DNA of 37,548 nucleotides from an uncultured Candidatus Kuenenia sp. (GCA_964432895.1 CAYSPN010000440.1:1-37548); one strand, 5' to 3'. Shown: positions 12,003-33,431, counted from the first letter of the stretch. Notes: generated by a model not told the origin, from the letters alone. Translations and numbers: made by a program.

Positions 12003-12976
12003 GGAGAGGATTCCCGGCATCGTCGAATGACCTCCTTGAGCGACACGACCACATCGTCGAGGTAATGCCCTGGAAACGTTGCCCGCCGCTGCTGCTCCGG
12101 CCCATGGGTCGCACCGATCTGAATCAGCAGAAAGTCTGCGTCGAAGGGCAGCTGGAGCTCGCAATCGATCGGCAGCCACCCCGCCGGATCGCGGTCGAAG
12201 CAAGCCCGCCGCCGATGCGTCATCGCAAGCGACTCCCGGGCCAGATCACTGTCGGGAACATCGTCAAGACGGTCAAACGTGGCCTCATCAAAGGCGTACA
12301 TGCAGATTGATCCTGTGTATTTCTCTTCTGGCGGATACTCGGCCGCATTGCAACGCGCCGTCGCCCTCGCGACCACGCAGCCGCCCCCTATCAGATCGCG
12401 GTAGGGCCGCAGGTCGATGACGCGATACACATCGGAGATGTAGCCGTCCCGCTCCGGCTTGCCGGGGTAGTCGGCCTGGAGCAGCCGCAGCATCCGGCGG
12501 CCTTCGGCCGGCGCGACGCCCTGATCGGCCGGCACCACTTGGCACACGTCGCCGCTCCAGCCACCAAGCCGGCCGACGAGGCCGCGGCACTCCGGAGCGG
12601 GCCCTGATTCAAAACCGTCGGCGAAGATCACCACCGGCCGCGACAGCATTGGCACGACATAGCCGAAGGCCAGCCCCGCTCCACCGAGGCCCACAAGCAG
12701 GCCGACCGCCGCTGCAGCCAACGGCACGCGGAGCGACGTCGGCTGCACCGACCGCGTGGTCACCGCCGGGCCGGGATCGTCGCCACCACGGCCAGCCGGT
12801 TCTTGCCAGAGAGACTCGTCGATGGCCAGGCAGGCATGCAGATCGGCCAGGCAGAGATAGCGATCACGGACCGCCGGGTCTGATGCCAAAGCTTCCTCGA
12901 GTCGTATCAGTTCGTCATCGGTGGCACGGCCATCGAGGCAGGCGTGAATCAGGGCGTCGAGTTCGGAAGGATTCAT
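11999..12976 (-). CDS. Anti-sigma factor, single-pass membrane protein with an unassigned periplasmic domain
   Basis: Frame of ORF 11999..12982 (TTG); the first ATG is 12976. The N terminus MNPSELDALIHACLDGRATDDELIRLEEALASDPAVRDRYLCLADLHACL is typical of planctomycete anti-sigma factors. One TM helix (PLAAAAVGLLVGLGGAGLAFGYVV). It lies immediately downstream of the ECF sigma gene. Confidence 0.7.
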   Translation of the reverse strand: MNPSELDALIHACLDGRATDDELIRLEEALASDPAVRDRYLCLADLHACLAIDESLWQEPAGRGGDDPGPAVTTRSVQPTSLRVPLAAAAVGLLVGLGGAGLAFGYVVPMLSRPVVIFADGFESGPAPECRGLVGRLGGWSGDVCQVVPADQGVAPAEGRRMLRLLQADYPGKPERDGYISDVYRVIDLRPYRDLIGGGCVVARATARCNAAEYPPEEKYTGSICMYAFDEATFDRLDDVPDSDLARESLAMTHRRRACFDRDPAGWLPIDCELQLPFDADFLLIQIGATHGPEQQRRATFPGHYLDDVVVSLKEVIRRCRESSP

Positions 12977-13014
12977 GGTCAAAGCCGTCTATCGAGAAAC
13001 GTTGTGGATGGTGC

Positions 13015-13548
13015 TCATGAGGTGGAACCGCTGGCCGACAGCCGCTCCTTGCGGCCGATGCAGGCCTCGAGGACGTACCGGATCCGCTGCAGCGATTTGT
13101 AGACCGCCTCGACGGTGCGGCTGAGCCGTTCGGCAATGGCCGGCACGGACTCATCGTCGAAGTAGTAGCCGCGGACAAGGCTTTGCTGGTCGGCCGGTAA
13201 CTGGTCGAGGCACTCGCGAAGGTGCTCCCGCCGCGCGTCGAGCTGCGGCGCGATCTCGATTCGCCGGGCCTCGAGCATTGCCACGAGATCTTCACGGATA
13301 AACCGCTTCCGCCGCCCCTCGGTGCGGAGGAACATCCGGGCCTCGTTGAGGGCAAACCGGCAGGCCCACGGGACGAACGGCCGATCGGGGTCGTATTGGT
13401 CGATCGCCTTCCAAAGGGACAGCGCCGTCTCCTGGAGGATGTCGCGGGCGTCGGCCACGTTCGGCACGATCGCCATCGCGTAGCGGAGGATCTCTTGCTC
13501 CGACTGGAGAAACAGCCGCATGAACTGCTCATGCGAGAGGGGAGACAT
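13015..13548 (-). CDS. ECF-type RNA polymerase sigma-70 factor
   Basis: Frame of ORF 13015..13632; start at ATG 13548. Region 2 is ..ILRYAMAIVPNVADARDILQETALSLWKAIDQYDPDRPFVPWACRFALNEARMF. Region 4 is ..LDQLPADQQSLVRGYYFDDESVPAIAERLSRTVEAVYKSLQRIR. Confidence 0.9.
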   Translation of the reverse strand: MSPLSHEQFMRLFLQSEQEILRYAMAIVPNVADARDILQETALSLWKAIDQYDPDRPFVPWACRFALNEARMFLRTEGRRKRFIREDLVAMLEARRIEIAPQLDARREHLRECLDQLPADQQSLVRGYYFDDESVPAIAERLSRTVEAVYKSLQRIRYVLEACIGRKERLSASGSTS

Positions 13549-13578
13549 GCGGGTTTTTTCCTGGAAAGCGGTCACGAA

Positions 13579-13628
13579 GGTACTATGCCGTCGATCGGTC
13601 GGATTGGACGTTTCTGGCGGGAACGGCC
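13579..13628 (-). promoter_or_regulatory. F1 module copy A (promoter-shaped) upstream of the ECF sigma gene
   Basis: The coding strand reads GGCCGTTCCCGCCAGAAACGTCCAATCCG-accgatcga-CGGCATAGTACC. The TAGTAC hexamer lies 31 nt upstream of ATG 13548. The module aligns without gaps with copies B, C and D. Confidence 0.5.
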
Positions 13629-13656
13629 GCATCCCGACCGTATTTGGGCTACCTTA

Positions 13657-13702
13657 AAGGATAGGTCGCCCAATGGCACTTCGGCAGGCGTCGGCCGAGC
13701 GG
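13657..13702 (+). repeat. F2 repeat copy 2 (solo, just upstream of F1-A)
   Basis: aaggataggtcgcccaatggcacttcggcaggcgtcggccgagcgg is 40/46 identical to 6428-6473, in the same orientation. Confidence 0.7.
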
Positions 13703-13723
13703 AGGGACGACGGCCATTGAGGG

Positions 13724-14037
13724 TCAGCGATTGTCGGCGGCCTTCTTCTCCGGCAGGGCGGCGGTGATCTGGGCGGCCACCTGCGCGGCCAGTTTGTCGT
13801 AGCCGGCTCCTTGATAACGGACGTCGCCCGGCTTGACGAAAAGTTCGATCTTGAGCTCCGGCCCAGGGGTCGAGCGGCCGCGTTCGACGTAGCATTGCAA
13901 CAGGGAGCGTAGCTCTTTCACCTTGCCGGGGAATTGCGCCTACAGGTTGTTTTTCTCGGCCGGGTCCTCGGCGAGATTGTAGAGCTGGACCGGCGGCTGG
14001 GTTGAGACTCGGCCTGAGGTGGACCCCGAGCCAGCCC
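13724..14037 (-). pseudogene. Sulfatase relic: C-terminal ~90 codons only, with an in-frame TAG
   Basis: Own minus-strand translation: ..QPPVQLYNLAEDPAEKNNL-TAG(13940-13942)-AQFPGKVKELRSLLQCYVERGRSTPG...AADNR*. The LYNLxEDPxExxNL...P.KVKEL pattern is the usual sulfatase C terminus. Everything upstream is missing, because the neighbouring gene's stop is at 14038. Confidence 0.7.
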
Positions 14038-14454
14038 CTATTTCGGGATATCGATCGTGAGCCGGCGGCTGGAGGCGTCGATGGTGTATTCGAGGCCCGA
14101 CGCTCGAGGGTCGGCGTAACGCTTGGCGACCCGGAGTTTTGCCAGTTCAACAGCATCGAGACCGGCCGGGGAGACACCGCCCTCGACCGATTCGATGGCA
14201 ACTCGATACACACCCGGCTTCAGAAAGATCGAGAACCTGCCCCCGTGATCGATACGGCTGACCCCACGATCGAGGCCATCTTCAACCGATTCAAAGGTGA
14301 TTTGCCCATCCGGAAGTGGCGAGCCGGCCACCGTCACCCGACCGCTTGTCGTGACCCGTCCCGGTGGCGCACTGTTCCAGCAGCCGCTGAGGCCTGCGAT
14401 CGTGAGGCCGAGAAGGCAAGCCTGAAAACTGAATGTTTGAAAATCCGCCCTCAT
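14038..14454 (-). CDS. Lipoprotein with a carboxypeptidase-regulatory-like (Ig-like) domain; partner of the DUF1559 gene
   Basis: Frame of ORF 14038..14481. ATG 14454 overlaps the upstream stop (ATGA). Lipobox in MRADFQTFSFQACLLGLTIAGLSGC. Also GRVTVAGSPLPDGQITFES..GRFSIFLKPGVYRV. Confidence 0.6.
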   Translation of the reverse strand: MRADFQTFSFQACLLGLTIAGLSGCWNSAPPGRVTTSGRVTVAGSPLPDGQITFESVEDGLDRGVSRIDHGGRFSIFLKPGVYRVAIESVEGGVSPAGLDAVELAKLRVAKRYADPRASGLEYTIDASSRRLTIDIPK

Positions 14455-15512
14455 GGCAACGTGCCATCTCCACTCGCACATTGTCCCAGACTTCGCAGGA
14501 CGGTCGGCGTGACGTCATCCCTGAGAAAGTGCACGGAGCCATCCGCCATCACAAACTGCGCACCGCCGAAGTGGAAGCTGCCAAAGCCGTACGAAAAGGT
14601 GAGCCCGTTGAAGCAATTGTCCGTCACCGGATCGCATGACACATTCAAGGAATTCGTCGCGACCGCGGCATTCGCGAGTCCGCCATTTCCACTGGTTAAG
14701 GCTGAAGCCCAGGTGAATTCCCCGGCCCCACCCCCCCCGCCGGTCCAGTTCCACCCTGATGCCAGCTGTGAGTACCGGGTCTCCCCGAGGAGAAAAGCTT
14801 TGCTTGAGCCGTCAGTGATGTGGGCCAAACGGGTCTTGGAATTGAGGAACATCACGCCACCGGCGGATAAGGGCTTAAACCCGCGGCCGCGGCAGGGTTT
14901 GTCGTTGTTCGGTGTTACGGGGCCCCAGGCGGCCAGATCATCGCTGAAGCCCGGGCAGTTCAGAGTTGTTCCAGGGTTTGGCCCTCCCCCCATCACGGCT
15001 ATATAGTTCGTTCCCGCATAGGGGCCATCCAGGCCGAGTGTGCCTGAAGTCAGCGAGAAATGCGGACTTGACGGACAGAGAAAGCTATCGTTTCGTCTTT
15101 TCTGTGGCCCGGCATTCGCACCGGCTCGCCCCGCTTCGGTGTTGAATGCTCCGGCGAATGTTCCAGAGAGCGTAAACGAATCATAACGAGCCTGATCCTC
15201 AAGATGCGGCAGGATCAGGACCTGCCACGGTGGTCCATCAGGCTGCTTAAAGTAGGCATAGGCTCCCGGTGTTCCCGAGGCGGGGCGGGTGACGACAGCA
15301 GGGGGAAATGTGCGTTTCCCATCGACATAGTTGAGCACCGCGAGAGAAAGCTGCTTGAGCTTGTTGGTGCACGCCACTCGTCTTGCCGACTCCCGAGCCG
15401 ATTGCACCGCTGGAAGCAGAAGACCGACCAACACCCCGATGATCGCAATCACCACGAGCAGCTCAACGAGGGTGAAGCCACGAGCCCGCTGAAATCGATA
15501 TGCGGTAACCAT
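14451..15512 (-). CDS. DUF1559 protein with a prepilin-type N-terminal cleavage/methylation domain
   Basis: ORF track, 353 aa. Motifs: RGFTLVELLVVIAIIGVLVGLLLPAVQSARESARR..C.NKLKQLSLAVLNY, and C-terminal FGSFHFGGAQFVMADGSVHFL. Confidence 0.9.
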   Translation of the reverse strand: MVTAYRFQRARGFTLVELLVVIAIIGVLVGLLLPAVQSARESARRVACTNKLKQLSLAVLNYVDGKRTFPPAVVTRPASGTPGAYAYFKQPDGPPWQVLILPHLEDQARYDSFTLSGTFAGAFNTEAGRAGANAGPQKRRNDSFLCPSSPHFSLTSGTLGLDGPYAGTNYIAVMGGGPNPGTTLNCPGFSDDLAAWGPVTPNNDKPCRGRGFKPLSAGGVMFLNSKTRLAHITDGSSKAFLLGETRYSQLASGWNWTGGGGGAGEFTWASALTSGNGGLANAAVATNSLNVSCDPVTDNCFNGLTFSYGFGSFHFGGAQFVMADGSVHFLRDDVTPTVLRSLGQCASGDGTLP

Positions 15513-15562
15513 GATTGCCCTCCCGAGGGATCACCGTCTGGGTAGATGTGAAGACCTCAACG

Positions 15563-15613
15563 GAGTTCTATGCCGGTCCTACGATCGTTTGGACAACTTT
15601 TTTTAGAAAGCCC
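15563..15613 (-). promoter_or_regulatory. F1 module copy D (most diverged) upstream of the DUF1559 gene
   Basis: Plus strand reads agttCTATGCCGgtcctacgatcGtTTGGACaacttttttt.. On the coding strand TCCAAA-n17-TAGAAC, with the hexamer 52 nt upstream of ATG 15512. Confidence 0.4.
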
Positions 15614-15729
15614 ACCCCCAGCAGCACCGGACCCGGAAAAACTCCAGAAATCACGGGGTTTCGGCTTTACCGCACCGCCCACACCCGACTATCCCCGATA
15701 TCCATGGCCACATCCCAGTTGCGGGCGGG

Positions 15730-17394
15730 CTACGGCTTCTGCGCCGCGTCGGGCTGCCGTCGTTTCGCCGGGGCCGCCTCCGGCTGCGCCGCCGGAGGCC
15801 GCGGATACCGCACGACCTCGACGTCGTTCTGCTGCGGCGGGCCCGGCCGGCTGCGGCCCGTCGTGATGAGCTGCTCGAGGAGCGCCTGCATCTCGGCGAC
15901 CCGCTCGGGCTGCTCGCCGGCGAGGTTCTTCCGCTCGCCGAGGTCGGAGGCGAGGTCGTAGAGCTGCACGTTCTGCGCCGGGTCGTCTCCCCCCGTCCAG
16001 CCCCCGGACCCGGGGGCGGCGATGTACTTCCAGGAGCCGAGCCGCACGCCCGGCACACCCCGCATCGAGCAGCTCACGGCATGCTCGCGGACGGGCGTCA
16101 TGCTCCCCTTCAGGAGCGGCACGAGGCTGAAGCTGTCTTCGCCGGCATCGTCGGGGAGCGGCGTGCCGAGGATCTCGGCGCAGGTCGCCATGAGATCGGC
16201 CTGGTGCACGAGCTGATCGCAGACGCTTTCGGGCTTCACAACGCCGGGCCAGCGGGCGATGAACGCGACGCGATGCCCTCCCTCCCAGACGTCCGACTTG
16301 TAGCCCCGCAGCGGGCCGCTCGGGTAGTGGCCGCGGGCCTCGAGTTTCTTGGCCCCGACGTAGGGGGCAAAGCCGTTGTCACTCGTGAATACGACGAGCG
16401 TGTCGTCGGCGACGCCGGCGGCATCGAGGGCCGCGAGCACGTCACCGACGACCGCGTCGGTCTCCATGATGAGGTCGGCGCAGGCGTTGTCGAGGCCGCT
16501 CTTTCCCCGCCACGGCTCGTTCACCGCCAGGGGCGTGTGCGGCGAGGTAAGCGGCATGTAGAGGAGGAACGGCTGCTTCGCGCGACCGCGGTCGGCGATG
16601 AACTCGACCGCCCGGTCGCGGAGCGTCGGCAGGACGGCCTCCAGCTTCCAGTCGGGCAGCGCCGGCCCCTGGGCGCTTGCGCGATGATCTTGCAAGTCGG
16701 CCGCGGGCAGGAACTCCGAGGGGATGCCCACCGTGCGATCGTCGGCGATGAAGCAGTACGGAGGCCAGTTGGGCACGTCGGTGCCGAAGTAGACATCGAA
16801 GCCTCGGGTCGTCGGCCCGCCGGCGATCGGGCGTGAAAAGATCCGTTGCCAGGCGGCCTGCTGCTCGGCCGTGGCGGTCGGGCCGGCGGCATCGGCGGCA
16901 ACACCCTTCGGCTGCGCGACGGCCTGGGTCGACCGTCTCTCATCGGGCGTGAGGGACCAGTCCCAGCCGAGATGCCACTTGCCGATGCAGGCTGTGCGGT
17001 AGCCGTGCTGGCGGGCGAGCGTGCCGAGCGTGACGCGGTCGGCAGCGATGAGGGGATCGCCCCACGTGCCGACGATGCCGCTCTGGAGCCGCGTCCGCCA
17101 GTGGTAGCGGCCGGTGAGCAACGCGTAGCGGGAGGGCGAGCAGACACCCGAGGAGGAGTGGGCGTCGCTGAACCGCATCCCCTGCGCGGCGAGCCGGTCG
17201 AGGTGCGGCGTGGGGATCTTGCCGCGGTCAGGGTTGTAACAGTGCACGTCGCCGTAGCCGAGGTCGTCGGCGTAGATCACGACGATGTTCGGAGTCGCGG
17301 CCGCCGCAGACGGGGCGTGCAGCCCCGCCGCGAACGCGAGAAGCCAAGTCAGCGGGTACAGGCGGAGGCAGGCGTTTTGCATGAGATTTCGCAT
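15730..17394 (-). CDS. Sulfatase (Cys-type), secreted
   Basis: ORF track, 554 aa. Signal peptide, then NIVVIYADDLGYGD, VCSPSRYALLTGR, GKWHLG, FTSDNG. Confidence 0.9.
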   Translation of the reverse strand: MRNLMQNACLRLYPLTWLLAFAAGLHAPSAAAATPNIVVIYADDLGYGDVHCYNPDRGKIPTPHLDRLAAQGMRFSDAHSSSGVCSPSRYALLTGRYHWRTRLQSGIVGTWGDPLIAADRVTLGTLARQHGYRTACIGKWHLGWDWSLTPDERRSTQAVAQPKGVAADAAGPTATAEQQAAWQRIFSRPIAGGPTTRGFDVYFGTDVPNWPPYCFIADDRTVGIPSEFLPAADLQDHRASAQGPALPDWKLEAVLPTLRDRAVEFIADRGRAKQPFLLYMPLTSPHTPLAVNEPWRGKSGLDNACADLIMETDAVVGDVLAALDAAGVADDTLVVFTSDNGFAPYVGAKKLEARGHYPSGPLRGYKSDVWEGGHRVAFIARWPGVVKPESVCDQLVHQADLMATCAEILGTPLPDDAGEDSFSLVPLLKGSMTPVREHAVSCSMRGVPGVRLGSWKYIAAPGSGGWTGGDDPAQNVQLYDLASDLGERKNLAGEQPERVAEMQALLEQLITTGRSRPGPPQQNDVEVVRYPRPPAAQPEAAPAKRRQPDAAQKP

Positions 17395-17407
17395 GGGCCA
17401 GTGGTTG

Positions 17408-19009
17408 CTACTTGCCAGGTTTCTTCGCCGGGCCGGCGGTGCGCAGCTGCACGGAGTGCGCTTTCATATAGTCGGCGCGGCGCTGATTGATGGCGATTGA
17501 ATTGGCCGCGGTTTTCGTGCGCAACTCGTCCAGGATGGCGGTGTGTGTCGGATCGGTGGCAAGGTTGTGTTGCTCAGCGGGATAGGCCTCGAGGTCGAAA
17601 AGCATCTCGAACTCGGCATTGCGACCTTGGAAATCGACGTCTGTTTCCTTGAAGCTCATCACGCCGTCATACATCCGAATGTATTTCCAGCGACTGGTCC
17701 GCATGCCTTCCTGAAAAGGATTGTCCCGCATGGTGAAGAGGCTTTCAAGGAAGAGCTCATCGCGCCAGGAGGTCTCTTTGCCTTCCACGAGCGGACGCAG
17801 ACTGTGCCCTTCCATTTCCGCGGGAGCCTCAATGCCGGCGTAGTCGAGAATGGTGCGGGTGTAGTCAAGGCTGGAGACGATCTGATCAAGCTGGCGACCG
17901 CGTTGCTCCTGCGGGGTTCGCGGATCGTGGATGATGCAGGGGATCTTCGTCGCGAGGTCGAGCAACAAGCCTTTTCCGCCCATCCCATATTCGCCCATGA
18001 GCAGCCCGTGGTCGCTGCCGAAAAGGATGACGGTGTTTTGATCGAGGCCGCGTCTCTTCAGGTCCGCGAGCAGGCCGCCGATGACGTGATCCAGGCCGGT
18101 GATCGTCTGGTAGTAGCGGACGTGATGCTCGCGACAGGCAGAAAGATCATAGTTGTAGCTGTAGGTCTGCCGCCGCCCCTTGTCCTGGTCCAACATGAAC
18201 TTCGGGATGAAGCGGTAGGGGTCGGTGCAGGTATCGGCTGGCAGGGAAATGTCGAGATCGCGATAGAGCGTGTCGTAGAAAGGGCTGCCTTTGAGCTTGG
18301 GGTTCTCGTTGGCCGGGCGAGTCATCCCAATCCACTGGGGATAGGCGGTAAACATGGATGTCGTCTGCGAGCCATGCGGCACATTGAAGCTGACGGAGAG
18401 GCAGAAGGGCTTCTCTTTCGGCGCGGTGTCGAGGAACTGTGCCATTCCCTCGCCCATGATGAAGGTGACGACGTCCTCCTTGGCGCCGTGATAGGGCGTG
18501 GTGCTGGGTGAGTCGTGATCCTTGGGCAGAAACTTGGTCCAGCCATCGTGCCCATACCAAAAGTCAAACTTATCCTGCGCCCGGCCCTTGAAGGTGTAGT
18601 ACTCAACGCCAAACTTCCCGATGAAGCCTGTGTGGTACCCGGCTTTGCGGAGCAGTGCGGGATAGGTCTGCTCCCACTGCGGCTCCGTGAGGGTGTACGA
18701 CGAACTGAAGCCCACGCCATGCACCCGCTCCGGCATTCCGGTAAAAAACGACACCCGGCTCGGCGCACACACCGGCGTGGCGATGTAAGCGTTTGTGAAA
18801 CGCACCGAATCGCGCATCAGCGAATCGAGGTTGGGTGTTTTCACAGAGGGATGCCCCATGGCGCCGAGCGTGTTGTCTCGCTGGTCGTCGGTGAGGAGGA
18901 AGATGATGTTCGGCCGGGGTGAAGATTCCGCTGCGTCGGCAAGACGGGCGCCGGCCAGCAGTGCCAGCGATACTGCAGAAAGCAAGCAGGAGCGGAAGCG
19001 GTTTTTCAT
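17408..19009 (-). CDS. Sulfatase (Cys-type), secreted
   Basis: Frame of ORF 17408..19087 (GTG). ATG 19009 gives MKNRFRSCLLSAVSLALLAGARLADA. Motifs: NIIFLLTDDQ, VCAPSRVSFFTG, GSDHG. Confidence 0.9.
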   Translation of the reverse strand: MKNRFRSCLLSAVSLALLAGARLADAAESSPRPNIIFLLTDDQRDNTLGAMGHPSVKTPNLDSLMRDSVRFTNAYIATPVCAPSRVSFFTGMPERVHGVGFSSSYTLTEPQWEQTYPALLRKAGYHTGFIGKFGVEYYTFKGRAQDKFDFWYGHDGWTKFLPKDHDSPSTTPYHGAKEDVVTFIMGEGMAQFLDTAPKEKPFCLSVSFNVPHGSQTTSMFTAYPQWIGMTRPANENPKLKGSPFYDTLYRDLDISLPADTCTDPYRFIPKFMLDQDKGRRQTYSYNYDLSACREHHVRYYQTITGLDHVIGGLLADLKRRGLDQNTVILFGSDHGLLMGEYGMGGKGLLLDLATKIPCIIHDPRTPQEQRGRQLDQIVSSLDYTRTILDYAGIEAPAEMEGHSLRPLVEGKETSWRDELFLESLFTMRDNPFQEGMRTSRWKYIRMYDGVMSFKETDVDFQGRNAEFEMLFDLEAYPAEQHNLATDPTHTAILDELRTKTAANSIAINQRRADYMKAHSVQLRTAGPAKKPGK

Positions 19010-19088
19010 ATTCCGGTCCATCCGGGATTTCCGTGGGGAGAGCCGTAATTTGCCTGGCGTTGTACGAAAGCCTTGCTTACGAGTCACC

Positions 19089-20966
19089 TCATGGCTTCTT
19101 CGGTGCCGTGATCTTGTCCCAAGGCTCTACGTTCGTGCGGGCTGCATAGGCATCCCACATGGCAGTCATCCGCTTGACGCGGCCGGGCTCGAGTCCGCTG
19201 AGATCATTCTGCTCCGAACGGTCCTTCGATAGGTCGTAGAGTTCCCAGCGGTCGCCGTGGACGGCCACGAGTTTCCAATCGCCCTCCCGAACGGCCTTGT
19301 TGCCCTCGTGTTCCCAGTAGATCGCCTCGCGGTCGATCGCGCCGCCTGTAAAGAGCGGGGCCAAGCTTTTTCCTTCGAGCGGCGTCTTGTCGGCGGGATA
19401 CGACGCGCCGGCCAGATCAACGGCTGTGGCCATGATGTCGATGAGGTGGCCAGGCGTTCGTTCGAGCCGGCCGGGCTCCCTGATGCCACGAGGCCAGTGG
19501 ACGATGAGTGGCGTCGCGATACCCCCTTCATGGACCCAGTGCTTGTACATGCGGAACGGCGTGTTCGACACGGTCGCCCAGGCGGGGCCATACGCGACAA
19601 ACGTGTCGGCCGGGCCGGCCATCACGCCCTTGCCTTCCCGCAGCGGATAGCCGTCGCGGGTCTGCTTCTGTCGCACCTTCACGCCGATGAAGTCTGCGGG
19701 GAGTGGCTGCAGGCTTGGCATGTCGGCGCGAGCAGGGCCGATCCCGCCGCGACCGATCGTCTCGGCACAGCCGCCGTTGTCTTGCAGGTAGCAGACGAGC
19801 GTGTTGTCGGCCTGGCCAGCATCCTCGACCGCCTTCATGATCCTGCCGATGCCCTGGTCCATGCTATCGACCATCGCGGCATAGACCTCCATGTTTCGCT
19901 GGTCCCAGGCCAACCACTCGTCTTCTTCGCCGAGTTTCGGCGGCCACGGCCAGAGCGTCGTCTCGGCCGCGGTCACCACGCCTTCGGTCAGCATTTTCGC
20001 ATAGCGAGCCTTGCGGATGGCCTCGTACCCGGCGGCGTAGCGGCCTGCGTATTTCACGATGTCGCGGTCGCGGGCGTGCATCGGCCAGTGGGCGGCCGTG
20101 TAGGCCACGTACAGAAAGAAGGGCTTCGTCGCGTCGTGCTCCGTGATGAACCGCACGGCGTGGTCGCTGATCGCGTCGGTGTAGTAGTAGTCGGCCGCCG
20201 GATAATCGGGGTCGGCGAAGGCCGACATCATTCGGTTGTCGCGGACAAGCGTGGCGGGGTCAAAGAAGTTGCCGCCGCCGATGATCGTGCCGTAGAAACG
20301 CATGAAGCCCCGCTGCAGCGGCCAGTTGCGTTTCTCCGCGTCGCTCTTGGGCCTGATCGCCCCCGTGACGTGCCACTTGCCCACGGCATAGCTCGCGTAG
20401 CCGGCCGGCGCGACCACCTCGGCGATCGTGGCACAGCGGTCGTTGAGGTCACCGCGGTAGCCGGGAAATTCCCGATCGGTCTCCATGTGGCCGACGCCCG
20501 CTTGGTGAGGATAAAGTCCCGTCAGCAGGCTCGCCCGAGTCGGGCAGCAGCGAGCGGTGTTGTAAAACTGCGTGAACTGCAGGCCGCCCCGCGCCAGCCG
20601 GTCGAGGTTCGGCGTCTCGATCTCGCTGCCATAGCAGCCGACATCGGAAAACCCCATGTCGTCGGAAAGGATAACGACGATGTTGGGGCGGGACGGAGCG
20701 GCCGGCTCCGCCGCGATCGACCTCGCAGGGCCCGCGAACAGCCCGATGATGACGCCAGCCCCATGGAGCGACCACCGTGCCCAGGCTGAATCGTTCATGC
20801 GAAACCCCATGCACGTACTCCCAGGGAGCACTTTTCGGACAATCGCCAAGGTTTGCACGACAACAACAGCCACAAGCGCGATCACCAACGCGCAGCAACA
20901 CGGGCTCGAGAGCGTATCTCGCAGTCCTGATGGAGGCTGTGGTGGCTGACGAAGTGTCGTTGCCAT
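19089..20966 (-). CDS. Arylsulfatase (Cys-type); start uncertain (ATG 20966, or ATG 20798 giving a paralog-like signal peptide)
   Basis: ORF track, 625 aa. Motifs: NIVVILSDDMGFSDVGCYG, CCPTRASLLTGLYPHQAGVGHM, GKWH. The C terminus WELYDLSKDRSEQNDL..NVEPWD ends 10 aa later. The F1-B hexamer lies 66 nt upstream of ATG 20966. Confidence 0.9.
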   Translation of the reverse strand: MATTLRQPPQPPSGLRDTLSSPCCCALVIALVAVVVVQTLAIVRKVLPGSTCMGFRMNDSAWARWSLHGAGVIIGLFAGPARSIAAEPAAPSRPNIVVILSDDMGFSDVGCYGSEIETPNLDRLARGGLQFTQFYNTARCCPTRASLLTGLYPHQAGVGHMETDREFPGYRGDLNDRCATIAEVVAPAGYASYAVGKWHVTGAIRPKSDAEKRNWPLQRGFMRFYGTIIGGGNFFDPATLVRDNRMMSAFADPDYPAADYYYTDAISDHAVRFITEHDATKPFFLYVAYTAAHWPMHARDRDIVKYAGRYAAGYEAIRKARYAKMLTEGVVTAAETTLWPWPPKLGEEDEWLAWDQRNMEVYAAMVDSMDQGIGRIMKAVEDAGQADNTLVCYLQDNGGCAETIGRGGIGPARADMPSLQPLPADFIGVKVRQKQTRDGYPLREGKGVMAGPADTFVAYGPAWATVSNTPFRMYKHWVHEGGIATPLIVHWPRGIREPGRLERTPGHLIDIMATAVDLAGASYPADKTPLEGKSLAPLFTGGAIDREAIYWEHEGNKAVREGDWKLVAVHGDRWELYDLSKDRSEQNDLSGLEPGRVKRMTAMWDAYAARTNVEPWDKITAPKKP

Positions 20967-21030
20967 CTGGTTAGAAACTACTCATTCGAGAGGGGAGAAG
21001 CGCGGGGCTTCTCTTCGATCGAGGTCGCGG

Positions 21031-21081
21031 AGATTCTATGCCGGTGACCTACCGGATTGGACACTTCTGGCGGAAACGGCC
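21031..21081 (-). promoter_or_regulatory. F1 module copy B upstream of the three-sulfatase operon
   Basis: The coding strand reads GGCCGTTTCCGCCAGAAGTGTCCAATCCG-gtaggtcac-CGGCATAGAATC, i.e. TCCAAT-n17-TAGAAT. Confidence 0.5.
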
Positions 21082-21197
21082 CCCTTTGCGACCGCGAACG
21101 GATCGGGATCCATTGTTTGGGGTTCGCGCGCGTCTGAACGGCGGGTTATGCGACGCACAACTGCAGTCCCCGGCGTCCGGGTGCCTGTTCCGGGCCC

Positions 21198-21734
21198 TTA
21201 CGGCCGCGGGGCCGCCCAGCGCGCGGCATTCTCGATCACCGTGAGATTCTCGGGCTGGCGGTAGATCGGATAGGTCTCGTGGCCAGGGCGAAAATAGAAA
21301 ACGCGGCCTTTGCCCACGTTCCAGGTGCAGCCGCTTCGAAACCGCTCGCCCTTGTCCCACCGTTCCTCAAAGACGACGGCATCCGGTGCGGGAACATGAA
21401 ATGGTTCGTCATACATTTCAGTCTTCGGGATGTCCCATTGAGCCGGCAGCCCCTTGGCGATCGGGTGCTCGGGCAAGAGAGTACGGACATGGCTCGGTTC
21501 GCCGTCGGTGGCTCCACCAAACGATTCGTCATCGTTGAAACCTTGTGGAGTCTGTCGAGCGCGTTTTTACCACAGGTCCACAAACATGACCTTGAAAACA
21601 AGCCCTTCAACGGGTGGTTGGTACTTCGAACGGCTGGAGCCCGGCGGGGAGTATAGTCGGTCCAGATCAGCAACGATCACTTCGTTGACGTGCTGGTATT
21701 TGTGTTCAGTTCGATACCCGAGAGGATGAATCAT
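21198..21734 (-). pseudogene. ThuA-like (trehalose-utilisation family) relic: in-frame TAA and a short N terminus
   Basis: The C-terminal 92 aa (ORF 21198..21476) read EHPIAKGLPAQWDIPKTEMYDEPFHVPAPDAVVFEERWDKGERFRSGCTWNVGKGRVFYFRPGHETYPIY..IENAARWAA, which is ThuA-like. The same frame continues upstream through TAA at 21567-21569 to ATG 21734. The total of ~179 codons is shorter than a ThuA domain. Confidence 0.55.
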
Positions 21735-24138
21735 GGTCCGCGCTGTTTGGGGAATCGCTGTTTGGGGAATCTTGCTCGGCTGCGTTTGGTCGGTGCCGCT
21801 GATAGCTGCCGAACGTCCCAACGTCGTCGTGATTCTGGCCGACGACATGGGGTTTGCGGATCTGGGATGCTATGGCGGGGAAATCGAGACGCCCCACGTG
21901 GACCAGTTGGCGGCCGGTGGCCTGCGGTTTACACAGTTCTACAACACGGCTCGCTGCTGCCCCACACGTGCCGCCCTTTTGACAGGCTTGTACTCGCATC
22001 AAGCGGGTATTGGCCACATGACGGTTGATGATGGGATTCCCGCCTACCGGGGATACTTGAATCAGCGCTGCGTGACGATTGCCGAAGCGGTTCGTCCCAC
22101 GGGTTACGCGACATGTGCGGTTGGCAAGTGGCATGTCGGGTCGGCGCCCGGGCATTGGCCGCTGGACCGCGGGTTCGATCGGTTTTGGGGAACGCCGTCT
22201 GGCGGAGGGGTCTACTTCAAAGACACCCTGCAGCTTCGCAAGGAAATCTTCTTTACCAGCGGCAACCAGCGAATTGACCCTCCCGACGATCTCTATGTGA
22301 CCGACACCTTCACCGATCACGCTTTGGAATTCATCGAGGAAGCGGTTACGCAGACGCAACGGCCTTTCTTCCTTTATCTCCCGCATATCGCGCCGCACTG
22401 GCCATTGCAGGCGAAGGCTGCGGATATCGCCAAGTATGAAGGACGTTATCGGCTGGGGTGGGACGCGCTCCGGCAGGCGCGGTTGGACAAGCAGGTTCGG
22501 TTGGGGATCGTGCCTGCTGGCACACAGCTCAGTCCGCGGGACGCGAAAGCCCGCCCATGGGAAGAGGTCGGCGAGCAGGAGCGGGAGGAACTGGCGCGGC
22601 GGATGAGCATCTACGCGGCGCAGATCGACTGCATTGATAAGAATGTAGGCAGACTGGTGGCGAAGTTGAAAGCGCTGGGGGTTCTGGAGAACACGTTGAT
22701 CATGTTCTTGTCCGACAACGGATGTTCCGCGGAAGGAGGGCCCGGGGGATTCAGCCGCGGGACCGAGGGCGCGGAGATTGGTACAGGACTTTCTTATGCC
22801 AGCGCGGGATTAGAGTGGGTCAATGCGTGCAACACACCCTATCGGCGATACAAGAGCGACACGCATAAGGGAGGTGTTCGCACGCCCCTGATCGTGCACT
22901 GGCCGGCAGGAGTCGCGGCGCGAGGCCAGTTGAGGCAGGACGTGGGACATGTGGTCGACCTCATGCCTACGATTGTGCAGGCGACCGGTACCGGTTATCC
23001 GCAAACACGGAATGAAAACGAGGTTCTGCCGCTCGAAGGGATCAGCTTGCTACCAGCGTTTGCCGGAGAATCATTGCCGGAGCGATGGCTGTTCTGGGAG
23101 CACGAAGGGAACAAAGCCGTGCGGCACGGCAACTGGAAGGCGGTGGCGAAGGGGCCGCAACCGTGGCAGCTGTATGATCTCCAGCACGATTCGTCGGAAC
23201 TAGAGAATCTGGCGGCGCTGCAGCCGCAGCGTCTCGCTGGCTTGGTCGAGGGGTGGGCGGAGCGGTGTGGCGTGTGGGAGTGGGACGATGTGCTGGCGCA
23301 CCGCCAGCTTGCCACGTCCCGTGGCAAGCGTCGCGCGACGCATGAGACGGATCCGGGACAATTCTCGCCAGAAGCGTCCAATCCGGCCGGTTCGCGGCAT
23401 AGTACCTGTGTGCTTTCGTTCCCAGAAAGCCAAACATTGATCGCGAAACAGGCAATCATGAAATCCACCGTCGGAATCCTTCTTGTCTTTCTGTCGTCAG
23501 CGGTTCACGCCACTGAGAATTTGCCGGAAATGAAGCCGCTGCTCGGCGAGCGGGGCGACGTTATTTTCTCCGAGTCCTTCGACGGCCCAGACCCAGTTCC
23601 GCTTCGGGTCATCCGGAACACGATGTCCGAGCTCGCCGAGGGCGGGGTGCGTCTGGGGACGAAAATCGAACGACCGGAGTGGGGTCACGGCGGGATCGCG
23701 TTTGTCTACGGGAAGGACCGAGCCGCGCTCGAGGATTTCATTCTTGAAGCGGACTTCCGCTGGGATGTCGGGCAGAGTTTTGGCTTCCAGTTCCCCAGGG
23801 TGCGCGAGGCAGGAGAACCTGTGCACGGGGTTGCCCCCGAGTTCTTCATCCGATTCCGCCGACCCAAGGATGTGACCCAGCCGGGCTCCTGGGATATCAG
23901 AGACAACGCGCCAAAAGCCACCGTAGGCGAACACAAGGCCACCTTCCCGCCGGGCCAGTGGCACCGGGTCATGATCGAGGTGCGGAATGACGAAGTGGCG
24001 GTGCAACTCAGCAACGGCCAGTCCCTGCGAGGGAAGTGCAACAAAGCCAGCGCTCCCAAAATATCTCCACAGATCGGCACGGGCCCAGACGGTAGTGAGG
24101 CCGTCGTGGACACCATAACAATCTCCGCCTTCCGCTGA
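21733..24138 (+). CDS. Arylsulfatase (Cys-type) ORF that continues in frame through an intergenic-looking segment into a DUF1080/LamG-like gene (801-aa ORF)
   Basis: ORF track, 801 aa. The first ~520 aa form a complete sulfatase paralogous to 19089..20966: NVVVILADDMGFADLGCYG, CCPTRAALLTGLYSHQAGIGHM, ..WQLYDLQHDSSELENL..CGVWEWDD. Then come ~40 codons spanning a hairpin and the F1-C module, followed by a signal-peptide-like MKSTVGILLVFLSSAVHA. Confidence 0.8.
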   Translation: MVRAVWGIAVWGILLGCVWSVPLIAAERPNVVVILADDMGFADLGCYGGEIETPHVDQLAAGGLRFTQFYNTARCCPTRAALLTGLYSHQAGIGHMTVDDGIPAYRGYLNQRCVTIAEAVRPTGYATCAVGKWHVGSAPGHWPLDRGFDRFWGTPSGGGVYFKDTLQLRKEIFFTSGNQRIDPPDDLYVTDTFTDHALEFIEEAVTQTQRPFFLYLPHIAPHWPLQAKAADIAKYEGRYRLGWDALRQARLDKQVRLGIVPAGTQLSPRDAKARPWEEVGEQEREELARRMSIYAAQIDCIDKNVGRLVAKLKALGVLENTLIMFLSDNGCSAEGGPGGFSRGTEGAEIGTGLSYASAGLEWVNACNTPYRRYKSDTHKGGVRTPLIVHWPAGVAARGQLRQDVGHVVDLMPTIVQATGTGYPQTRNENEVLPLEGISLLPAFAGESLPERWLFWEHEGNKAVRHGNWKAVAKGPQPWQLYDLQHDSSELENLAALQPQRLAGLVEGWAERCGVWEWDDVLAHRQLATSRGKRRATHETDPGQFSPEASNPAGSRHSTCVLSFPESQTLIAKQAIMKSTVGILLVFLSSAVHATENLPEMKPLLGERGDVIFSESFDGPDPVPLRVIRNTMSELAEGGVRLGTKIERPEWGHGGIAFVYGKDRAALEDFILEADFRWDVGQSFGFQFPRVREAGEPVHGVAPEFFIRFRRPKDVTQPGSWDIRDNAPKATVGEHKATFPPGQWHRVMIEVRNDEVAVQLSNGQSLRGKCNKASAPKISPQIGTGPDGSEAVVDTITISAFR
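21742..21771 (+). repeat. Perfect 15-bp tandem duplication in the sulfatase signal-peptide region
   Basis: gctgtttggggaatc occurs twice in tandem and encodes the repeated AVWGI in MVRAVWGIAVWGILLG. Confidence 0.9.
23307..23329 (+). terminator. Perfect 10-bp stem hairpin just after the conserved sulfatase C terminus
   Basis: GCTTGCCACG-tcc-CGTGGCAAGC, followed by the palindrome GTCGCGCGAC (23330-23339). There is no T tract, so assigning it as a terminator is tentative. Confidence 0.3.
23356..23406 (+). promoter_or_regulatory. F1 module copy C, inside the 801-aa ORF and upstream of the internal ATG 23458
   Basis: Plus strand reads GGACAATTCTCGCCAGAAGCGTCCAATCCG-gccggttcg-CGGCATAGTACC, i.e. 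TCCAAT-n17-TAGTAC. The hexamer lies 52 nt upstream of ATG 23458. Confidence 0.5.
23458..24138 (+). CDS. Secreted concanavalin-A-like (DUF1080/LamG-type) protein, if translated from the internal start
   Basis: MKSTVGILLVFLSSAVHATENL.. is a signal peptide. The body (..DFILEADFRWDVGQSFGFQF..GQWHRVMIEVRNDEVAVQLSNGQSLRG..) has the beta-sandwich pattern of DUF1080-like proteins. It is preceded by F1-C. Confidence 0.5.
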   Translation: MKSTVGILLVFLSSAVHATENLPEMKPLLGERGDVIFSESFDGPDPVPLRVIRNTMSELAEGGVRLGTKIERPEWGHGGIAFVYGKDRAALEDFILEADFRWDVGQSFGFQFPRVREAGEPVHGVAPEFFIRFRRPKDVTQPGSWDIRDNAPKATVGEHKATFPPGQWHRVMIEVRNDEVAVQLSNGQSLRGKCNKASAPKISPQIGTGPDGSEAVVDTITISAFR

Positions 24139-24211: not shown

Positions 24212-27200
24212 ATGTCGAGCCACATCGTGCTACATCGATCGCGGCCGTTACGCACGGTGGTTCTCTCCGCCGCTGCGCTTCTTTTAGGCGGCCCGATTGT
24301 GTCGTGTCCTTCGGCCATCGCCGGCGAATCCCCCGATGCTGTGGCCCTCTTCGAGTCGAAATTACGGCCGCTCCTCGCGCACCGCTGCGCCGGGTGCCAT
24401 GGGGCGGGCACGGTGGAGGGTGAGTTCGACATTTCGAATCGCGAGAAACTGCTCGCAGGCGGGGCCAGCGGCCCCGCCGTCGTGCCCGGCAAGGCGATGG
24501 AAAGCCTGATGTACCGGCTGGCCGCACGGCTCGAGGAACCGCACATGCCGGAGGAGGGAGACGCGCTGACCTCGGAGCAGCTCGGCTGGCTCGCCGAATG
24601 GATCAACGGTGGAGCCCCGTTCGACAAGCCGCTGATCGACGACTCCGACCGCGGGCCATGGACAGATCGCGTGGTGAAGCCGGAGGCCCGGGACTACTGG
24701 GCGTTCCGCCCGCTCGCAGTCGTCAGCCCGCCCGAGCCGGCCGACCCCAACGGCTGGTGTCGCAATCCGATCGACCACTTCATCCTTGCGAAGCTCGAGT
24801 CAGCCGGCCTCGCACCGTCGCCCGAGGCCCCGCCGCAGACGCTCTTCCGCCGGCTCTCGTTTGACCTCACCGGGTTGCCGGCGACGCCACAGGAGATTGC
24901 CGACTTCTGTGATTCGTGTTCAAAGCAGGCCGGCGTCGCGTATGAACAGGCAGTCGACGATCTCCTATCGCGGGCGTCGTTTGGCGAGCGGTGGGCCCAG
25001 CACTGGCTCGATGTCGCCCGCTTCGCCGAGAGCTTCGGCTACGAACAGGACTACGACCGTCCACATGCCCATCACTACCGCGACTTCGTGATCAAGGCCT
25101 TCAACGATGACCTCCCCTACGACACGTTTCTGCGGTGGCAACTCGCCGGCGACGAGTTTGACCCCGACAATCTCGACGCGCAGAAGGCGACAGGCTTCCT
25201 CGCCGCCGGCGCATTCCCGACACAGCTGACGGAGAATGAGTTTGAGAGCGCCCGCTCCACCGAACTCGACGACATGGTCGGCACGGTCGGCACCGCGATG
25301 CTCGGAGCGACGATCGGCTGTGCCCGCTGCCACGACCACAAGTTCGATCCGTTCCCGCAGGCCGACTATTACCGCATGGCGGCGACGTTTACGACGACGA
25401 TCCGCTCAAACGTCGATCTGCCGGTGGATCCCGCCAAGGACCGCGCGATCCTCGCGGCGTGGGAGGCCCGACGGCTCGCGGCCGTGAAGGCCCGGGAAGC
25501 CTACGAGCGTGACGAACTGCCAAAGCGGTTCGACGCGTTCGTGGCTGCGTGGCAGCCAACCGCAAACGACGAGACGCGGCCATGGCGACTGGGCAAGCTC
25601 GTGTCGGCGGAAACCCAGGCGGGCCGAAAGTTCGCCCCGCTTGACGATGGCTCGCTCCTGGCCGTCGGCGTGGCCGCCGATCAAGACAGTTACACCTTCG
25701 TGATCGATGCACCGCTCGAGACGGTCGCCTCGCTGCGCATCGACGCGATTGCCGATGCGTCGTTGCCGCGCGGCGGGCCGGGCCGTGCTGCCAACGGCAA
25801 CTTCGCCCTCTCGAACCTCACCGTCTCCGCCTCGCCCATTCCGTCCAAGGGCAAGCCGGCGGCGGAGCCTTCGTCGATCAAGCTCGTGAATCCGCGGGCG
25901 GATTTCTCGCAGACGTCGCCTTCGCTGCTGGTCGAGCATGCGATCGATGCGAATGGTTCGACGGCCTGGGCGGTCGACCCGCAGTTCGGCGCGTCACATG
26001 CGGCGGTATTCGACTTCGAGAAGCCGGTGCAGCATGGTGGCGGCGTACGGCTGACGGTGAAACTCGAGTTCATGAACAATGCAAAGCATTCGATCGGCCG
26101 GCCGCGGATCTCTTTCGCTGATGCCCCGGGCGAGAAGGCGGAGCCGGTCACTGCGGCTCGCGACCCGGTGGATGCCGATGGGGAGCCGCGGCGCCGCGTG
26201 ACCGAAATCCTCGTAAAACCCGCCGCGCAGCGGACGGATGGGGAGAAGTCAGAACTCGCCGCGCTCCACCGAATGTTTGACGCAGGCTGGCGGGCTCTCG
26301 ACACGGTCGTCAGGCGGCTCGACGCCGAAAAGCCTGCCCCGACGCTCGTGAAGGTGCTTGTGGCCAGTGAGAACGTGCCGAAGATCCCGCACCACGCCGA
26401 CGAGCGCGGCTACCCGCACTTTTACCCCGAGACCCACTTCTTGCGACGTGGTGACGTCAACCAGAAGGAAGGCGTGGCGACGACGGGGTTTCTCCAAGTG
26501 CTCATGCGGCATCCCGACGGGGCGGCCCACTGGATCGAACCTGTTCCCGAGGGGGCGACGACGAGCCACCGCCGCGCCGCGCTGGCCCGCTGGATCACCG
26601 ACGTCGACCATGGAGCCGGCTACGTCGCCGCCCGCGTCATCGTCAATCGGCTCTGGCAGCATCATTTCGGGGAGGGGCTCGTTGCCACACCGAACGATTT
26701 TGGCAGGCAGGCCGATCCGCCGTCGCATCCCGAACTCCTTGATTGGCTCGCCAGCGAGTTGATCCGTAGCGGCTGGAGGCTGAAATCGATCCACCGCCTG
26801 ATGGTGACAAGCGCGGCCTACCGGCAGTCGAGTGCGATCGATCCGGTGAAGGCCGGGGTCGACCCGGGCAACCGTCTCGTGTGGCGGTTCAACCGCCGCC
26901 GCCTGGAAGGGGAAGCGATCCGTGACGCGCTCCTTTCGATGTCAGGCGGGCTCGATCCCGCGCTCTATGGCCGAGCCGGACGCGACGAGGCGAGCCCGAG
27001 GCGGAGCCTCTACCTTGAACGAAAGCGAAGCAAGCTGCCGCTCTTCCTGCGCACGTTCGACTCACCCGACTTCGTGTCGGGCGTGGCGAAGCGGTCGGTG
27101 ACGACGACCGCGCCGCAGGCGCTCGCGATGATGAACTCACCGCAGGCCCGCGTGTGGGCCGAACGGTTGGCCAAGGAACTCATAGCCGAGGCCGGATCGA

Positions 27201-28991: not shown

Positions 28992-29232
28992 AAAGCCGAC
29001 TCATTCGCGAGCTGGCTCCGGCCCCGTCGTCTCCTTGAAACCGTAATGGAGTGTGATGCCGCTCCATCTCGGCCAGCAGAGCCGCGAGCAAAAGCCCTCA
29101 CGGAGTACACTGCTGATCGCTAGATCAGGATCCTATGACAGGATAGCGTTGTTCGCACATGGAGCGCTCGCCATGCTCGATCTCTCCAAGATCTTCTCGA
29201 TGCTCACGACGATCCCGGGGGAGTTCCTCTTC

Positions 29233-30912: not shown

Positions 30913-30940
30913 CGACGACTGGGCGAACCACACCCAGTGC

Positions 30941-32527: not shown

Positions 32528-32549
32528 GATGGCTTCGCGGCGTTGGCGG

Positions 32550-33431
32550 TCAGACGATGGTCACGGCATTTTCCAGGCGACCGATTCCGCTGATGATGAT
32601 CGTGATGTGATCGTGTGGTGCCAGCGTGAAGGAGTCGTCGGGAACGATACCCGTGCCGGTCAGCAAGACGACTCCTCGAGCGAACGCCTGGGACCGCCAC
32701 AGGTAGGCCATCAGGTCGGCAAACGGACGTTTAATCTTGTCGATGCTGGTCTCACCGGCAAACACGACTTTGCCTGACCGGGAGATCGACACGGAAATCG
32801 ACCACTGGCGAATGACCTGTTCATCATCAACCAGCGTGATCCATGGGCCAAGGGAACATGACCGGTCGTAGGTTTTTGCCTGGGGAAGGTAGAGCAGATT
32901 TTCCCCCTCGATGTCGCGGGAACTCATGTCATTGCCGATCGTGCAGCCAATGAGCTTGCCACGTGAATTCATGACAAGTGCAAGCTCCGGTTCAGGCACG
33001 CTCCAGGTGGCGTCGCGACGAATGCCGACCGTGTCTCCCGGCCCGACAACCTTTTCCCCGATGGCCTTGAAGAAGATCTCGGGGCGGGGGGCCTCGTAGA
33101 CGCGATCATAGGCTGTCGCGCTGAAATCCGACTCCTCCATCCGCGCCGTCTTGCTGCGGAGGTAGGTGACACCCGCCGCCCAGACTTCCTGGCGTTCAAC
33201 CGGTGGGAGAAGTACGACCCCAGCAAGCGGATGGACCATCGACGCGCGTTGAACCGCCGCTCTGGCCGCACCGGCCGGGTCATCAGACTCGAGGAGGCTG
33301 GTCAGGGTCGGAGCATCGGCATCAGGCAGTTCGGCGATGCGATTGGCCTCCAACACGAGGCCAATCCGCGGCCGATCCCCCGACGCAGCGTGCCGGAAGC
33401 GGCACAGCCGAATCACATCATCGCGTTTCAT
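32550..33431 (-). CDS. Fumarylacetoacetate-hydrolase-family protein, 2-keto-3-deoxy-pentonate dehydratase-like (XylX/KdaD type)
   Basis: Frame of ORF 32550..33521; start at ATG 33431. [42 protein letters not shown] and the C-terminal GTGIVP..GIGRLEN are FAH-fold motifs. It lies 22 nt upstream of the KGSADH-like gene. Confidence 0.75.

Follow-up and report, generated by a model that had tools for sequence, protein, structure and literature searches.

A two-block element upstream of a planctomycetal ECF sigma factor operon and three neighboring units is probably the sigma factor's own promoter

A 37,548-nucleotide stretch of DNA from an uncultured Candidatus Kuenenia sp. (GCA_964432895.1 CAYSPN010000440.1:1-37548), hereafter the window, has a G+C content of ~63% and a gene content typical of planctomycetes. 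It encodes an extracytoplasmic function (ECF) sigma factor at the head of an operon, and a short bipartite element is found in four copies (A to D), upstream of this operon and of three neighboring transcription units. Our analysis suggests that the element is very probably the cognate promoter of this sigma factor, copied locally in front of the other units. The genes and core elements concerned are as follows.

13015-13548, minus strand: ECF sigma factor of 177 aa, TIGR02989 (Rhodopirellula/Verrucomicrobium family), downstream of copy A
11999-12982, minus strand: putative single-pass membrane anti-sigma factor of 327 aa, in the position after sigma in all orthologous loci
9261-12203 as an open reading frame (ORF), minus strand: PSCyt1/PSD3/PSD5/PSD4/PSCyt3/PSD2 protein, a conserved operon member
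7937-9235, minus strand: DUF1552 (HXXSHH) protein, closing the conserved part of the sigma operon
19089-20966, 17408-19087, and 15730-17394, minus strand: three sulfatases downstream of copy B
14451-15512, minus strand: DUF1559/N-methyl protein, downstream of copy D
14038-14481, minus strand: small CarboxypepD_reg-like protein, downstream of copy D and after DUF1559
23458-24138, plus strand: DUF1080-like protein, downstream of copy C
24212-27463, plus strand: PSCyt1/PSCyt2/PSD1 protein, in the copy C unit
27507-28991, plus strand: DUF1501 protein, in the copy C unit
13583-13609, minus strand: copy A core, GTCCAATCCGACCGATCGACGGCATAG, ending 34 nt before the sigma ATG at 13548
21036-21062, minus strand: copy B core, upstream of the three-sulfatase operon
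23376-23402, plus strand: copy C core, ending 55 nt before the ATG at 23458 of the DUF1080-like gene
15568-15594, minus strand: copy D core, GTCCAAACGATCGTAGGACCGGCATAG, ending 55 nt before the DUF1559 ATG at 15512

The sigma factor comprises Sigma70_r2 and Sigma70_r4_2 domains and matches TIGR02989 with 149.6 bits against a cut-off of 124.55, and its nearest solved structures are ECF sigma factors, placing it in the TIGR02989 subfamily of the ECF (group IV) sigma-70 proteins. Its start at 13548 agrees with the alignment of homologs. The 327-aa protein that follows has no Pfam or NCBIfam match but carries one hydrophobic segment (~aa 85-111), and its first 61 aa align with the N-terminus of a FecR-domain protein (38% identity, E 2e-10) encoded after a 53%-identical sigma homolog in another locus. 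On these features it is a candidate anti-sigma factor. The PSCyt/PSD ORF overlaps the anti-sigma gene, and its true start is therefore probably near 11990. The ATG at 20966 is likewise uncertain as the true start of the first sulfatase, which has a signal-peptide-like start 52 codons inward.

All four copies share the core GTCCAA-N13-CGGCATAG on the coding strand of the downstream gene. Every copy is oriented toward its adjacent gene, with the core ending 34–69 nt upstream of the start codon. When the window was scanned with a strict 17-base pattern (GTCCAATCC-N10-CGGCATAG, ≤3 mismatches allowed), exactly four sites were recovered, corresponding to A, B, C, and D, the last with two mismatches. 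The chance expectation is 0.07 sites, and none of 100 dinucleotide-preserving shuffles reached four. The two core blocks are all that copy D has in common with copy A, and the -35 flank of D (TTGTCCAAA) is the best fit to the family consensus among the copies.

An initial annotation of the window had described the four segments as an ungapped, promoter-shaped module. Re-reading of the sequence confirmed their coordinates and strands, their common orientation relative to the downstream gene, the distances of 31, 66, 52, and 52 nt between the hexamer TAGNAN and the ATGs at 13548, 20966, 23458, and 15512, and the 17-nt gap between TCCAA(T/A) and TAGNAN. Outside the core, A, B, and C align without gaps owing to recent duplication rather than constraint. 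An upstream CCGCCAGAA block is present in A, B, and C but not in D; it lies outside the conserved core, is lineage-specific, and is already altered to CTCGGGAGAA in a sister-strain ortholog of A. The assignment of TAGNAN as the -10 hexamer was not borne out: it overlaps only the end of the conserved block, CGGCA(G/T)A(G), and its last four positions vary in orthologs (GAGGAT, GAGTCT, GAGAAT). Based on these comparisons, the -35 block is assigned as (TT)GTCCAA(A) and the -10 block as CGGCA(G/T)A(G).

In close copies, GTGAC(C) occurs ~8–13 nt past the -10 block and is followed ~10 nt on by the near-palindrome TTCC(A/C)(G/A)GAA (window 13549-13582 and 23403-23430; ~4670-4704 in locus L039 of a relative). 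This stretch, which could be a start-site region or an operator, is not kept in distant orthologs.

To place the element in a wider context, homologs of the sigma factor were collected (265 at E ≤ 1e-10), and their loci were retrieved by looking up the exact proteins and from a single metagenome scan that used a 20-member alignment. A conserved operon of sigma factor, ~320-aa protein, PSCyt/PSD protein, and DUF1552 was present in every orthologous locus examined. Among 76 metagenomic loci with at least 80 nt of upstream sequence each and sigma factors 47–100% identical to that of the window, 72 have GTCCA[AG] ≤160 nt upstream of the sigma gene. Sixty-one distinct sites were found, nearly all with CGGCAGA(G/A/T), or with CGGAAGTA at a 1-nt longer spacer, at a fixed distance. 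An information profile of 43 distinct sites assigned 1.2–2.0 bits to the positions of the TTGTCCAAA and CGGCAGA blocks and 0.1–0.5 bit to the 11 intervening positions. The comparison with orthologous loci in related planctomycetes, which the initial annotation had proposed as a check, thus returned two blocks at the same spacing over 47–100% sigma identity. Representative upstream elements, by identity of the sigma factor, are as follows.

Sigma identity 92%: upstream element GTCCAATCCGACCGATCGACGGCATAG
Sigma identity 83%: upstream element GTCCAATCCGGCCGGCCGGCGGCAGAG
Sigma identity 73%: upstream element GTCCAACACCGTGCGGCTGCGGCAGAG
Sigma identity 70%: upstream element GTCCAAAACCAGGCACCAGCGGCAGAG
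Sigma identity 63%: upstream element GTCCAAAAACGGGGCCGAGGGGAAGAG

We also searched with a pattern derived from the window copies only (GTCCAA-N13-CGGCATAG, ≤1 mismatch), a test that is not circular. Across 91 loci outside the window's lineage, 18 matches (11 distinct) were detected, and all 18 fall on the sigma strand in the 170 nt preceding the gene, a zone that makes up 1.0% of the 1.5 million strand-bases (~750 kb) searched. No match was detected outside the sigma-upstream zone in those loci. Paralogous sigma genes offer a thin control (n = 2): the two 26%-identical genes in the fetched loci lack GTCCAA upstream.

The -10 block varies with the sigma clade. It reads CGGCAGAG at 60–100% sigma identity and CGGCAGAA/T in a marine group at 50–55% identity, whereas a soil group at 47–53% identity has CGGAAGTA and one extra nucleotide in the spacer. 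All 11 copies in the window's lineage have T at the sixth -10 position (CGGCATAG), even those with unrelated flanks (D, rel10053); most other lineages have G at this position (36 of 43 sites). An asymmetric two-block element that is fixed to the operon of one ECF family, co-varies with it, and is absent elsewhere is the expected signature of an autoregulated sigma promoter.

Within clades, the -10 block ends at a near-constant distance from the sigma ATG, 9 nt in most lineages and 16–18 nt in the soil group (sigma-upstream regions of loci L096, L098, L113-L140, and L144-L172); leaders in the window's lineage span 34–69 nt. The fixed short distances imply very short or absent leaders, suggest that sigma mRNAs in those clades may be leaderless or nearly so, and lend indirect support to the predicted transcription start just past the -10 block. 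The same distances would also fit a ribosome-binding signal or another RNA element in a transcribed 5' leader, given that the second block lies 9–18 nt before the ATG in many lineages and is purine-rich (GGCAGAG, GGAAGAG). However, in the window's lineage the block ends 34–69 nt before the starts, too far for a ribosome-binding site, and this model assigns no function to the invariant GTCCAA that lies 13 nt before the second block. RNAalifold predicted neither pairs nor covariation for 14 diverse copies and no Rfam match was found, and we consider an RNA-level role to be extremely improbable. The Rhodopirellula-1 motif of Weinberg et al. 2010 was also compared and is an unrelated hairpin (AACAA..GAU..GAAC...CGUU).

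Alternatively, the element could be bound by a different regulator, an activator or a repressor, of the sigma operon and neighboring units, with transcription starting from another, unrecognized promoter. Conservation upstream of the sigma gene shows that the element functions there but not which protein reads it, and the GTGAC...TTCC(A/C)GGAA stretch after the -10 block in close copies could be an operator. Nevertheless, the element is asymmetric and bipartite at a fixed distance, with no palindrome or direct repeat of the kind expected for a dimeric regulator. Moreover, it ends 9 or 16–18 nt before the sigma ATG in most lineages, which leaves no room for a separate downstream promoter, and the sigma factor is the only DNA-binding protein conserved in the operon. 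Control by another factor is therefore regarded as unlikely, and recognition by the sigma factor encoded directly downstream is favored.

If the element is the sigma factor's own promoter, then additional copies mark members of its regulon. The strict 17-base pattern was scanned over one genome per species (185,579 species), yielding 78 loci. Four matches fall on three contiguous 8-kb loci of a single contig (JAPLNR010000006.1, 51 kb) in a Planctomycetia metagenome-assembled genome (MAG) from Lac Pavin, and no other contig of this MAG has the strict motif. The remaining 75 loci (77 matches) are scattered over unrelated taxa in contexts that mostly look coding, and their number is close to a rough estimate of ~70 chance matches for 17 bases in ~1.2 x 10^12 strand-bases. 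The Lac Pavin contig is 93–96% identical to window positions 8647-29361, indicating that it derives from a sister strain. It carries orthologs of copies A and C and two others, the third upstream of the ortholog of the middle sulfatase and the fourth upstream of a further sulfatase that is followed by ThuA. Orthologs of both A and C are kept in the Lac Pavin strain and in a second sister strain. Over the eight copies of the window and the Lac Pavin strain, only GTCCAA.C and CGGCATAG are invariant.

This restricted distribution bears on the alternative offered by the initial annotation, namely that the module is a general housekeeping promoter consensus with an upstream element. Two hexamer-like blocks ~17 nt apart, and TAGAAT in copy B at the -10 position originally assigned, are in its favor. 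However, the strict motif occurs on only one contig of the Lac Pavin MAG, and the window-derived pattern is confined to sigma-upstream zones in ~750 kb of related loci. A position weight matrix scan of the 37.5-kb window, with a matrix trained on sigma-upstream sites and hence circular, not independent, for sites of that type, returned these four sites only, versus at least six other transcription-unit starts there. In addition, the TAGNAN positions vary across orthologs, and none of the four sites passed a scan for the sigma-70 consensus (TTGACA-N16-18-TATAAT) at 9 of 12. The restricted distribution and the failed sigma-70 scan lead us to reject this alternative, which we hold to be highly improbable. 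On the opposite strand of copy A, readings as a sigma-54 promoter or a classical ECF GGAAC/CGT promoter were evaluated by eye; their spacings do not fit and the bases concerned are not conserved among orthologs.

Second sites were identified near homologous sigma genes in other lineages, with downstream genes assigned by a simple ORF heuristic that is approximate (assignments in L102, L116/L119, and L147 are doubtful and are treated as candidates only). In L107, where the sigma factor is 73% identical, a second site lies upstream of a DUF1559 gene beside a sulfatase. Back-to-back divergent motif pairs with -35 blocks 6 to ~28 nt apart occur in L142 (4157-4239), L143 (9887-9969), and L153 (234-296), one site of each pair facing the sigma gene and the other a divergent operon. 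The divergent operon encodes two sulfatases in L142 and L143, preceded in L143 by a 235-aa protein, and the divergent site in L153 faces a gene whose product weakly matches a TAT signal. Weaker candidate sites precede an ILVD_EDD dehydratase gene (L081; one mismatch, 55 nt before the start) and a GH39 gene (L147). The ILVD_EDD gene of the window has no such site. Together, the second sites support a link between the putative regulon and glycan and sulfate-ester metabolism.

Sugar-acid catabolic genes are also found in the window itself (29053-35723), encoding SGL/gluconolactonase-like protein, aldehyde dehydrogenase, ILVD_EDD dehydratase, and FAA hydrolase. The set, FAA hydrolase aside, also flanks the sigma gene of the 83% ortholog (L081, 502-8000).

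The history of the copies can be partly reconstructed. Copies A and B share an ungapped local alignment of 106 nt (score 82; shuffle mean 16.5, sd 2.2, max 26) that begins 19 nt before the -35 block and takes in sigma codons 1-8. The two units are as follows.

13523-13628, minus strand: extended A unit with upstream flank, -35, -10, leader, and sigma codons 1-8, the source-type sequence of B
20976-21081, minus strand: copy B unit, containing sigma codons 1-8 in decayed form, upstream of the operon of three sulfatases

The sigma codons in A are ATG TCT CCC CTC TCG CAT GAG CAG, and the remnant in B reads GCT TCT CCC CTC TCG AAT GAG TAG (then TT). The presence of sigma codons within the alignment indicates that B is a duplicated sigma promoter with a dead sigma stub that now heads a sulfatase operon. 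Copies A and C also have flanks in common.

Whole units differ between strains as well. The DUF1559 cassette with copy D (13656-15771) and the first sulfatase (19089-20966) are missing from the Lac Pavin sister strain (L012), which instead has the motif-headed sulfatase and ThuA unit, and in the other sister strain (L079) sulfatases lie directly upstream of the sigma gene. These observations suggest that the regulon grew by promoter copying, and cassette turnover among strains is observed directly in the sequences compared.

Several further observations concern these rearrangements. Strains that are ~93–95% identical differ by whole motif-headed cassettes with breakpoints near promoter copies (window 13656-15771 and 19089-20966 compared with L012/L039/L068 and L079); a sulfatase and ThuA unit and an AbiEii/AbiEi pair occur in relatives only, and the DUF1559 unit and one sulfatase in the window only. 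Just upstream of copy B, window positions 21198-21476 (minus strand) encode a truncated ThuA of which the C-terminal 87 residues match PF06283 positions 123-209; this fragment is all that the window retains of the sulfatase and ThuA unit, and sister strains have a full-length ThuA gene. Between the DUF1559 cassette and promoter A (~13724-14010, minus strand) lies an apparent sulfatase C-terminal fragment with an in-frame TAG (..LYNLAEDPAEKNNL*AQFPGKVKELRSLL..), as judged by eye against the C-terminus of sulfatase 19089-20966. Upstream of copy C, a sulfatase ORF from 21733 (plus strand) has lost its stop codon at 23341-23346 (GAT TAG in the sister strain, CAT GAG in the window). The ORF consequently continues in frame through copy C into the DUF1080-like gene (21733-24138), giving an 801-aa sulfatase/DUF1080 fusion ORF that could be real read-through or a sequencing or strain polymorphism. 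Finally, a Y2_Tnp-type transposase fragment (6643-7407, minus strand) just past the end of the sigma operon and a PD-(D/E)XK nuclease gene (1122-1742, plus strand) hint at past mobile-element activity in the region.

The association of copies with cassette boundaries raises the alternative that they are rearrangement scars, recombination sites, or a small mobile repeat without a transcriptional role. The cassette differences ending near motif copies, the origin of B as a segmental duplicate of A, and the transposase fragment at 6643-7407 would all fit. Yet the copies have no inverted repeats or foldable structure, and no integrase or recombinase lies beside them among the annotated genes. Where flanks are unrelated, the copies still retain precisely the two blocks at the same distance, with variable bases in between, and in most other lineages the element is single-copy, fixed upstream of the sigma gene, and without cassettes. 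We consider a purely recombinational role very unlikely; the rearrangements more plausibly arose because promoter repeats were present. An integron attC site or other site-specific recombination site was considered separately and rejected, with no predicted pairs or inverted repeat and no integrase among the annotated genes.

Collectively, the element is bipartite, sits immediately before the sigma operon and points the same way, is conserved among orthologs, and has a variable spacer, all of which are features of an autoregulated promoter. The idea of a local ECF regulon put forward in the initial annotation is supported by this comparison, and dependence of the four units on the sigma factor is predicted from it. 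We propose that RNA polymerase carrying this sigma factor would read the -35 block, (TT)GTCCAA(A/T), through sigma region 4 and the -10 block, CGGCA(G/T)A(G), through sigma region 2. A gap of 13 nt separates the blocks, equivalent to ~15–17 nt between hexamers depending on where the hexamer limits are drawn, and the predicted transcription start is a few nt past the -10 block. Copy A would then provide positive autoregulation of the operon for the sigma factor, the membrane anti-sigma-like protein, the PSCyt/PSD protein, and DUF1552, and copies B, C, and D would place the three-sulfatase, DUF1080/PSCyt2-PSD1/DUF1501, and DUF1559 units under the same sigma factor in a compact local regulon. Release of the sigma factor by the anti-sigma factor upon an envelope signal, perhaps related to sulfated glycans, would turn this regulon on. 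Expansion of the regulon would have proceeded by promoter copying, B having retained the first codons of the sigma gene. Dependence on this sigma factor, the positions of the transcription starts, the inducing signal, and the anti-sigma function are all predictions from sequence.

Several points weigh against this interpretation. The case for sigma dependence is built from sequence comparison, and conservation upstream of the sigma gene would also fit another conserved DNA-binding regulator of the operon. Part of the likeness among A, B, and C stems from recent duplication and is uninformative about function. The genome-wide claim refers to the strict pattern and to one MAG of unknown completeness, and degenerate copies elsewhere were not searched. 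Furthermore, the blocks lack the AAC (-35) and CGT (-10) of many characterized ECF promoters; this lowers their likeness to the classical groups but is compatible with the ECF class, whose motifs are group-specific.

Autoregulated promoters are well known among ECF (group IV sigma-70) factors, for example Escherichia coli RpoE and Bacillus subtilis SigW. Like these, the element described here is a bipartite -35/-10 sequence with an unconserved spacer of fixed length directly upstream of an operon for a sigma and a putative anti-sigma factor, its copies mark a small regulon, and it co-varies with the sigma clade (CGGCAGAG, CGGCAGAA, CGGAAGTA). It differs from many characterized ECF groups in that GTCCAA and CGGCAGA lack the AAC and CGT signatures. 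ECF sigma factors typically transcribe their own operon from group-specific -35/-10 sequences, which is the basis for target-promoter prediction, and Casas-Pastor et al. 2021 (PMC7826278) predicted group-specific target motifs from ECF upstream regions. The main text of that reclassification does not give the present motif. Our literature search found no paper that gives this motif, although the group-level predictions in the supplements to PMC7826278 may already include it, and no paper that names TIGR02989 or pairs GTCCAA with such an ECF promoter.

In Rhodopirellula baltica, the ECF sigma factor RB10049 has been suggested to regulate the adjacent PSD1/PSCyt2 protein RB10051, an idea attributed to Studholme et al. 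2004 by Wecker et al. 2009 (PMC2754498). As in that case, an ECF sigma gene here lies beside genes for PSCyt/PSD proteins and regulation is deduced from gene context. However, the R. baltica proposal is one of adjacency, whereas here a shared cis-element ties a sigma operon (PSCyt3/PSD type plus DUF1552) to separate units that encode a PSCyt2/PSD1 and DUF1501 pair, sulfatases, and DUF1559. Sulfatase genes are often neighbors of PSCyt genes (He et al. 2017, PMC5615132).

The arrangement also resembles, by analogy and not by membership, a system of another phylum, as the pair of sigma and putative anti-sigma factor lies within and apparently controls a glycan-processing cluster, represented here by sulfatases, with GH39 and sugar-acid dehydratase genes as further glycan-type candidates in other lineages of this sigma factor. 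The system in question is the polysaccharide utilization locus of Bacteroidetes, which is regulated by ECF-sigma/anti-sigma pairs. Unlike in those loci, no SusC/SusD or TonB-dependent transducer was found among the annotated genes, and the proteins conserved alongside the sigma factor, PSCyt/PSD and DUF1552, have no known function. A broader scenario, which we offer tentatively and regard as somewhat doubtful, is that the TIGR02989 sigma factor, membrane anti-sigma factor, PSCyt/PSD, and DUF1552 form a planctomycetal sensor of sulfated or complex glycans, with PSCyt/PSD and DUF1552 acting as sensor or signal transducer. Such a system would recruit sulfatases, DUF1559 pseudopilin-like proteins, and PSCyt2/DUF1501 pairs, would be a counterpart of ECF-controlled polysaccharide utilization loci, and would evolve by pasting promoter copies before cassettes.

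That an ECF factor drives its own promoter and a small regulon is textbook knowledge, and the finding is a new, well-delimited instance of this mechanism rather than a novel type of system. Planctomycetes encode ECF sigma factors by the dozen and sulfatase, DUF1559, and PSCyt/PSD/DUF1501/DUF1552 genes by the hundred, and for almost none of them is a regulator or function known. Copy B, with the first eight sigma codons, clearly illustrates how a regulon can grow when its promoter is duplicated. For one widespread ECF family, the consensus TTGTCCAAA-N10-CGGCAGA, with its variants by clade, offers a testable handle that could be used in regulon scans of genomes or as an orthogonal expression tool. 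It predicts co-expression among these enigmatic genes and would link sulfatases and DUF1559 proteins to the PSCyt/PSD systems of planctomycetes.

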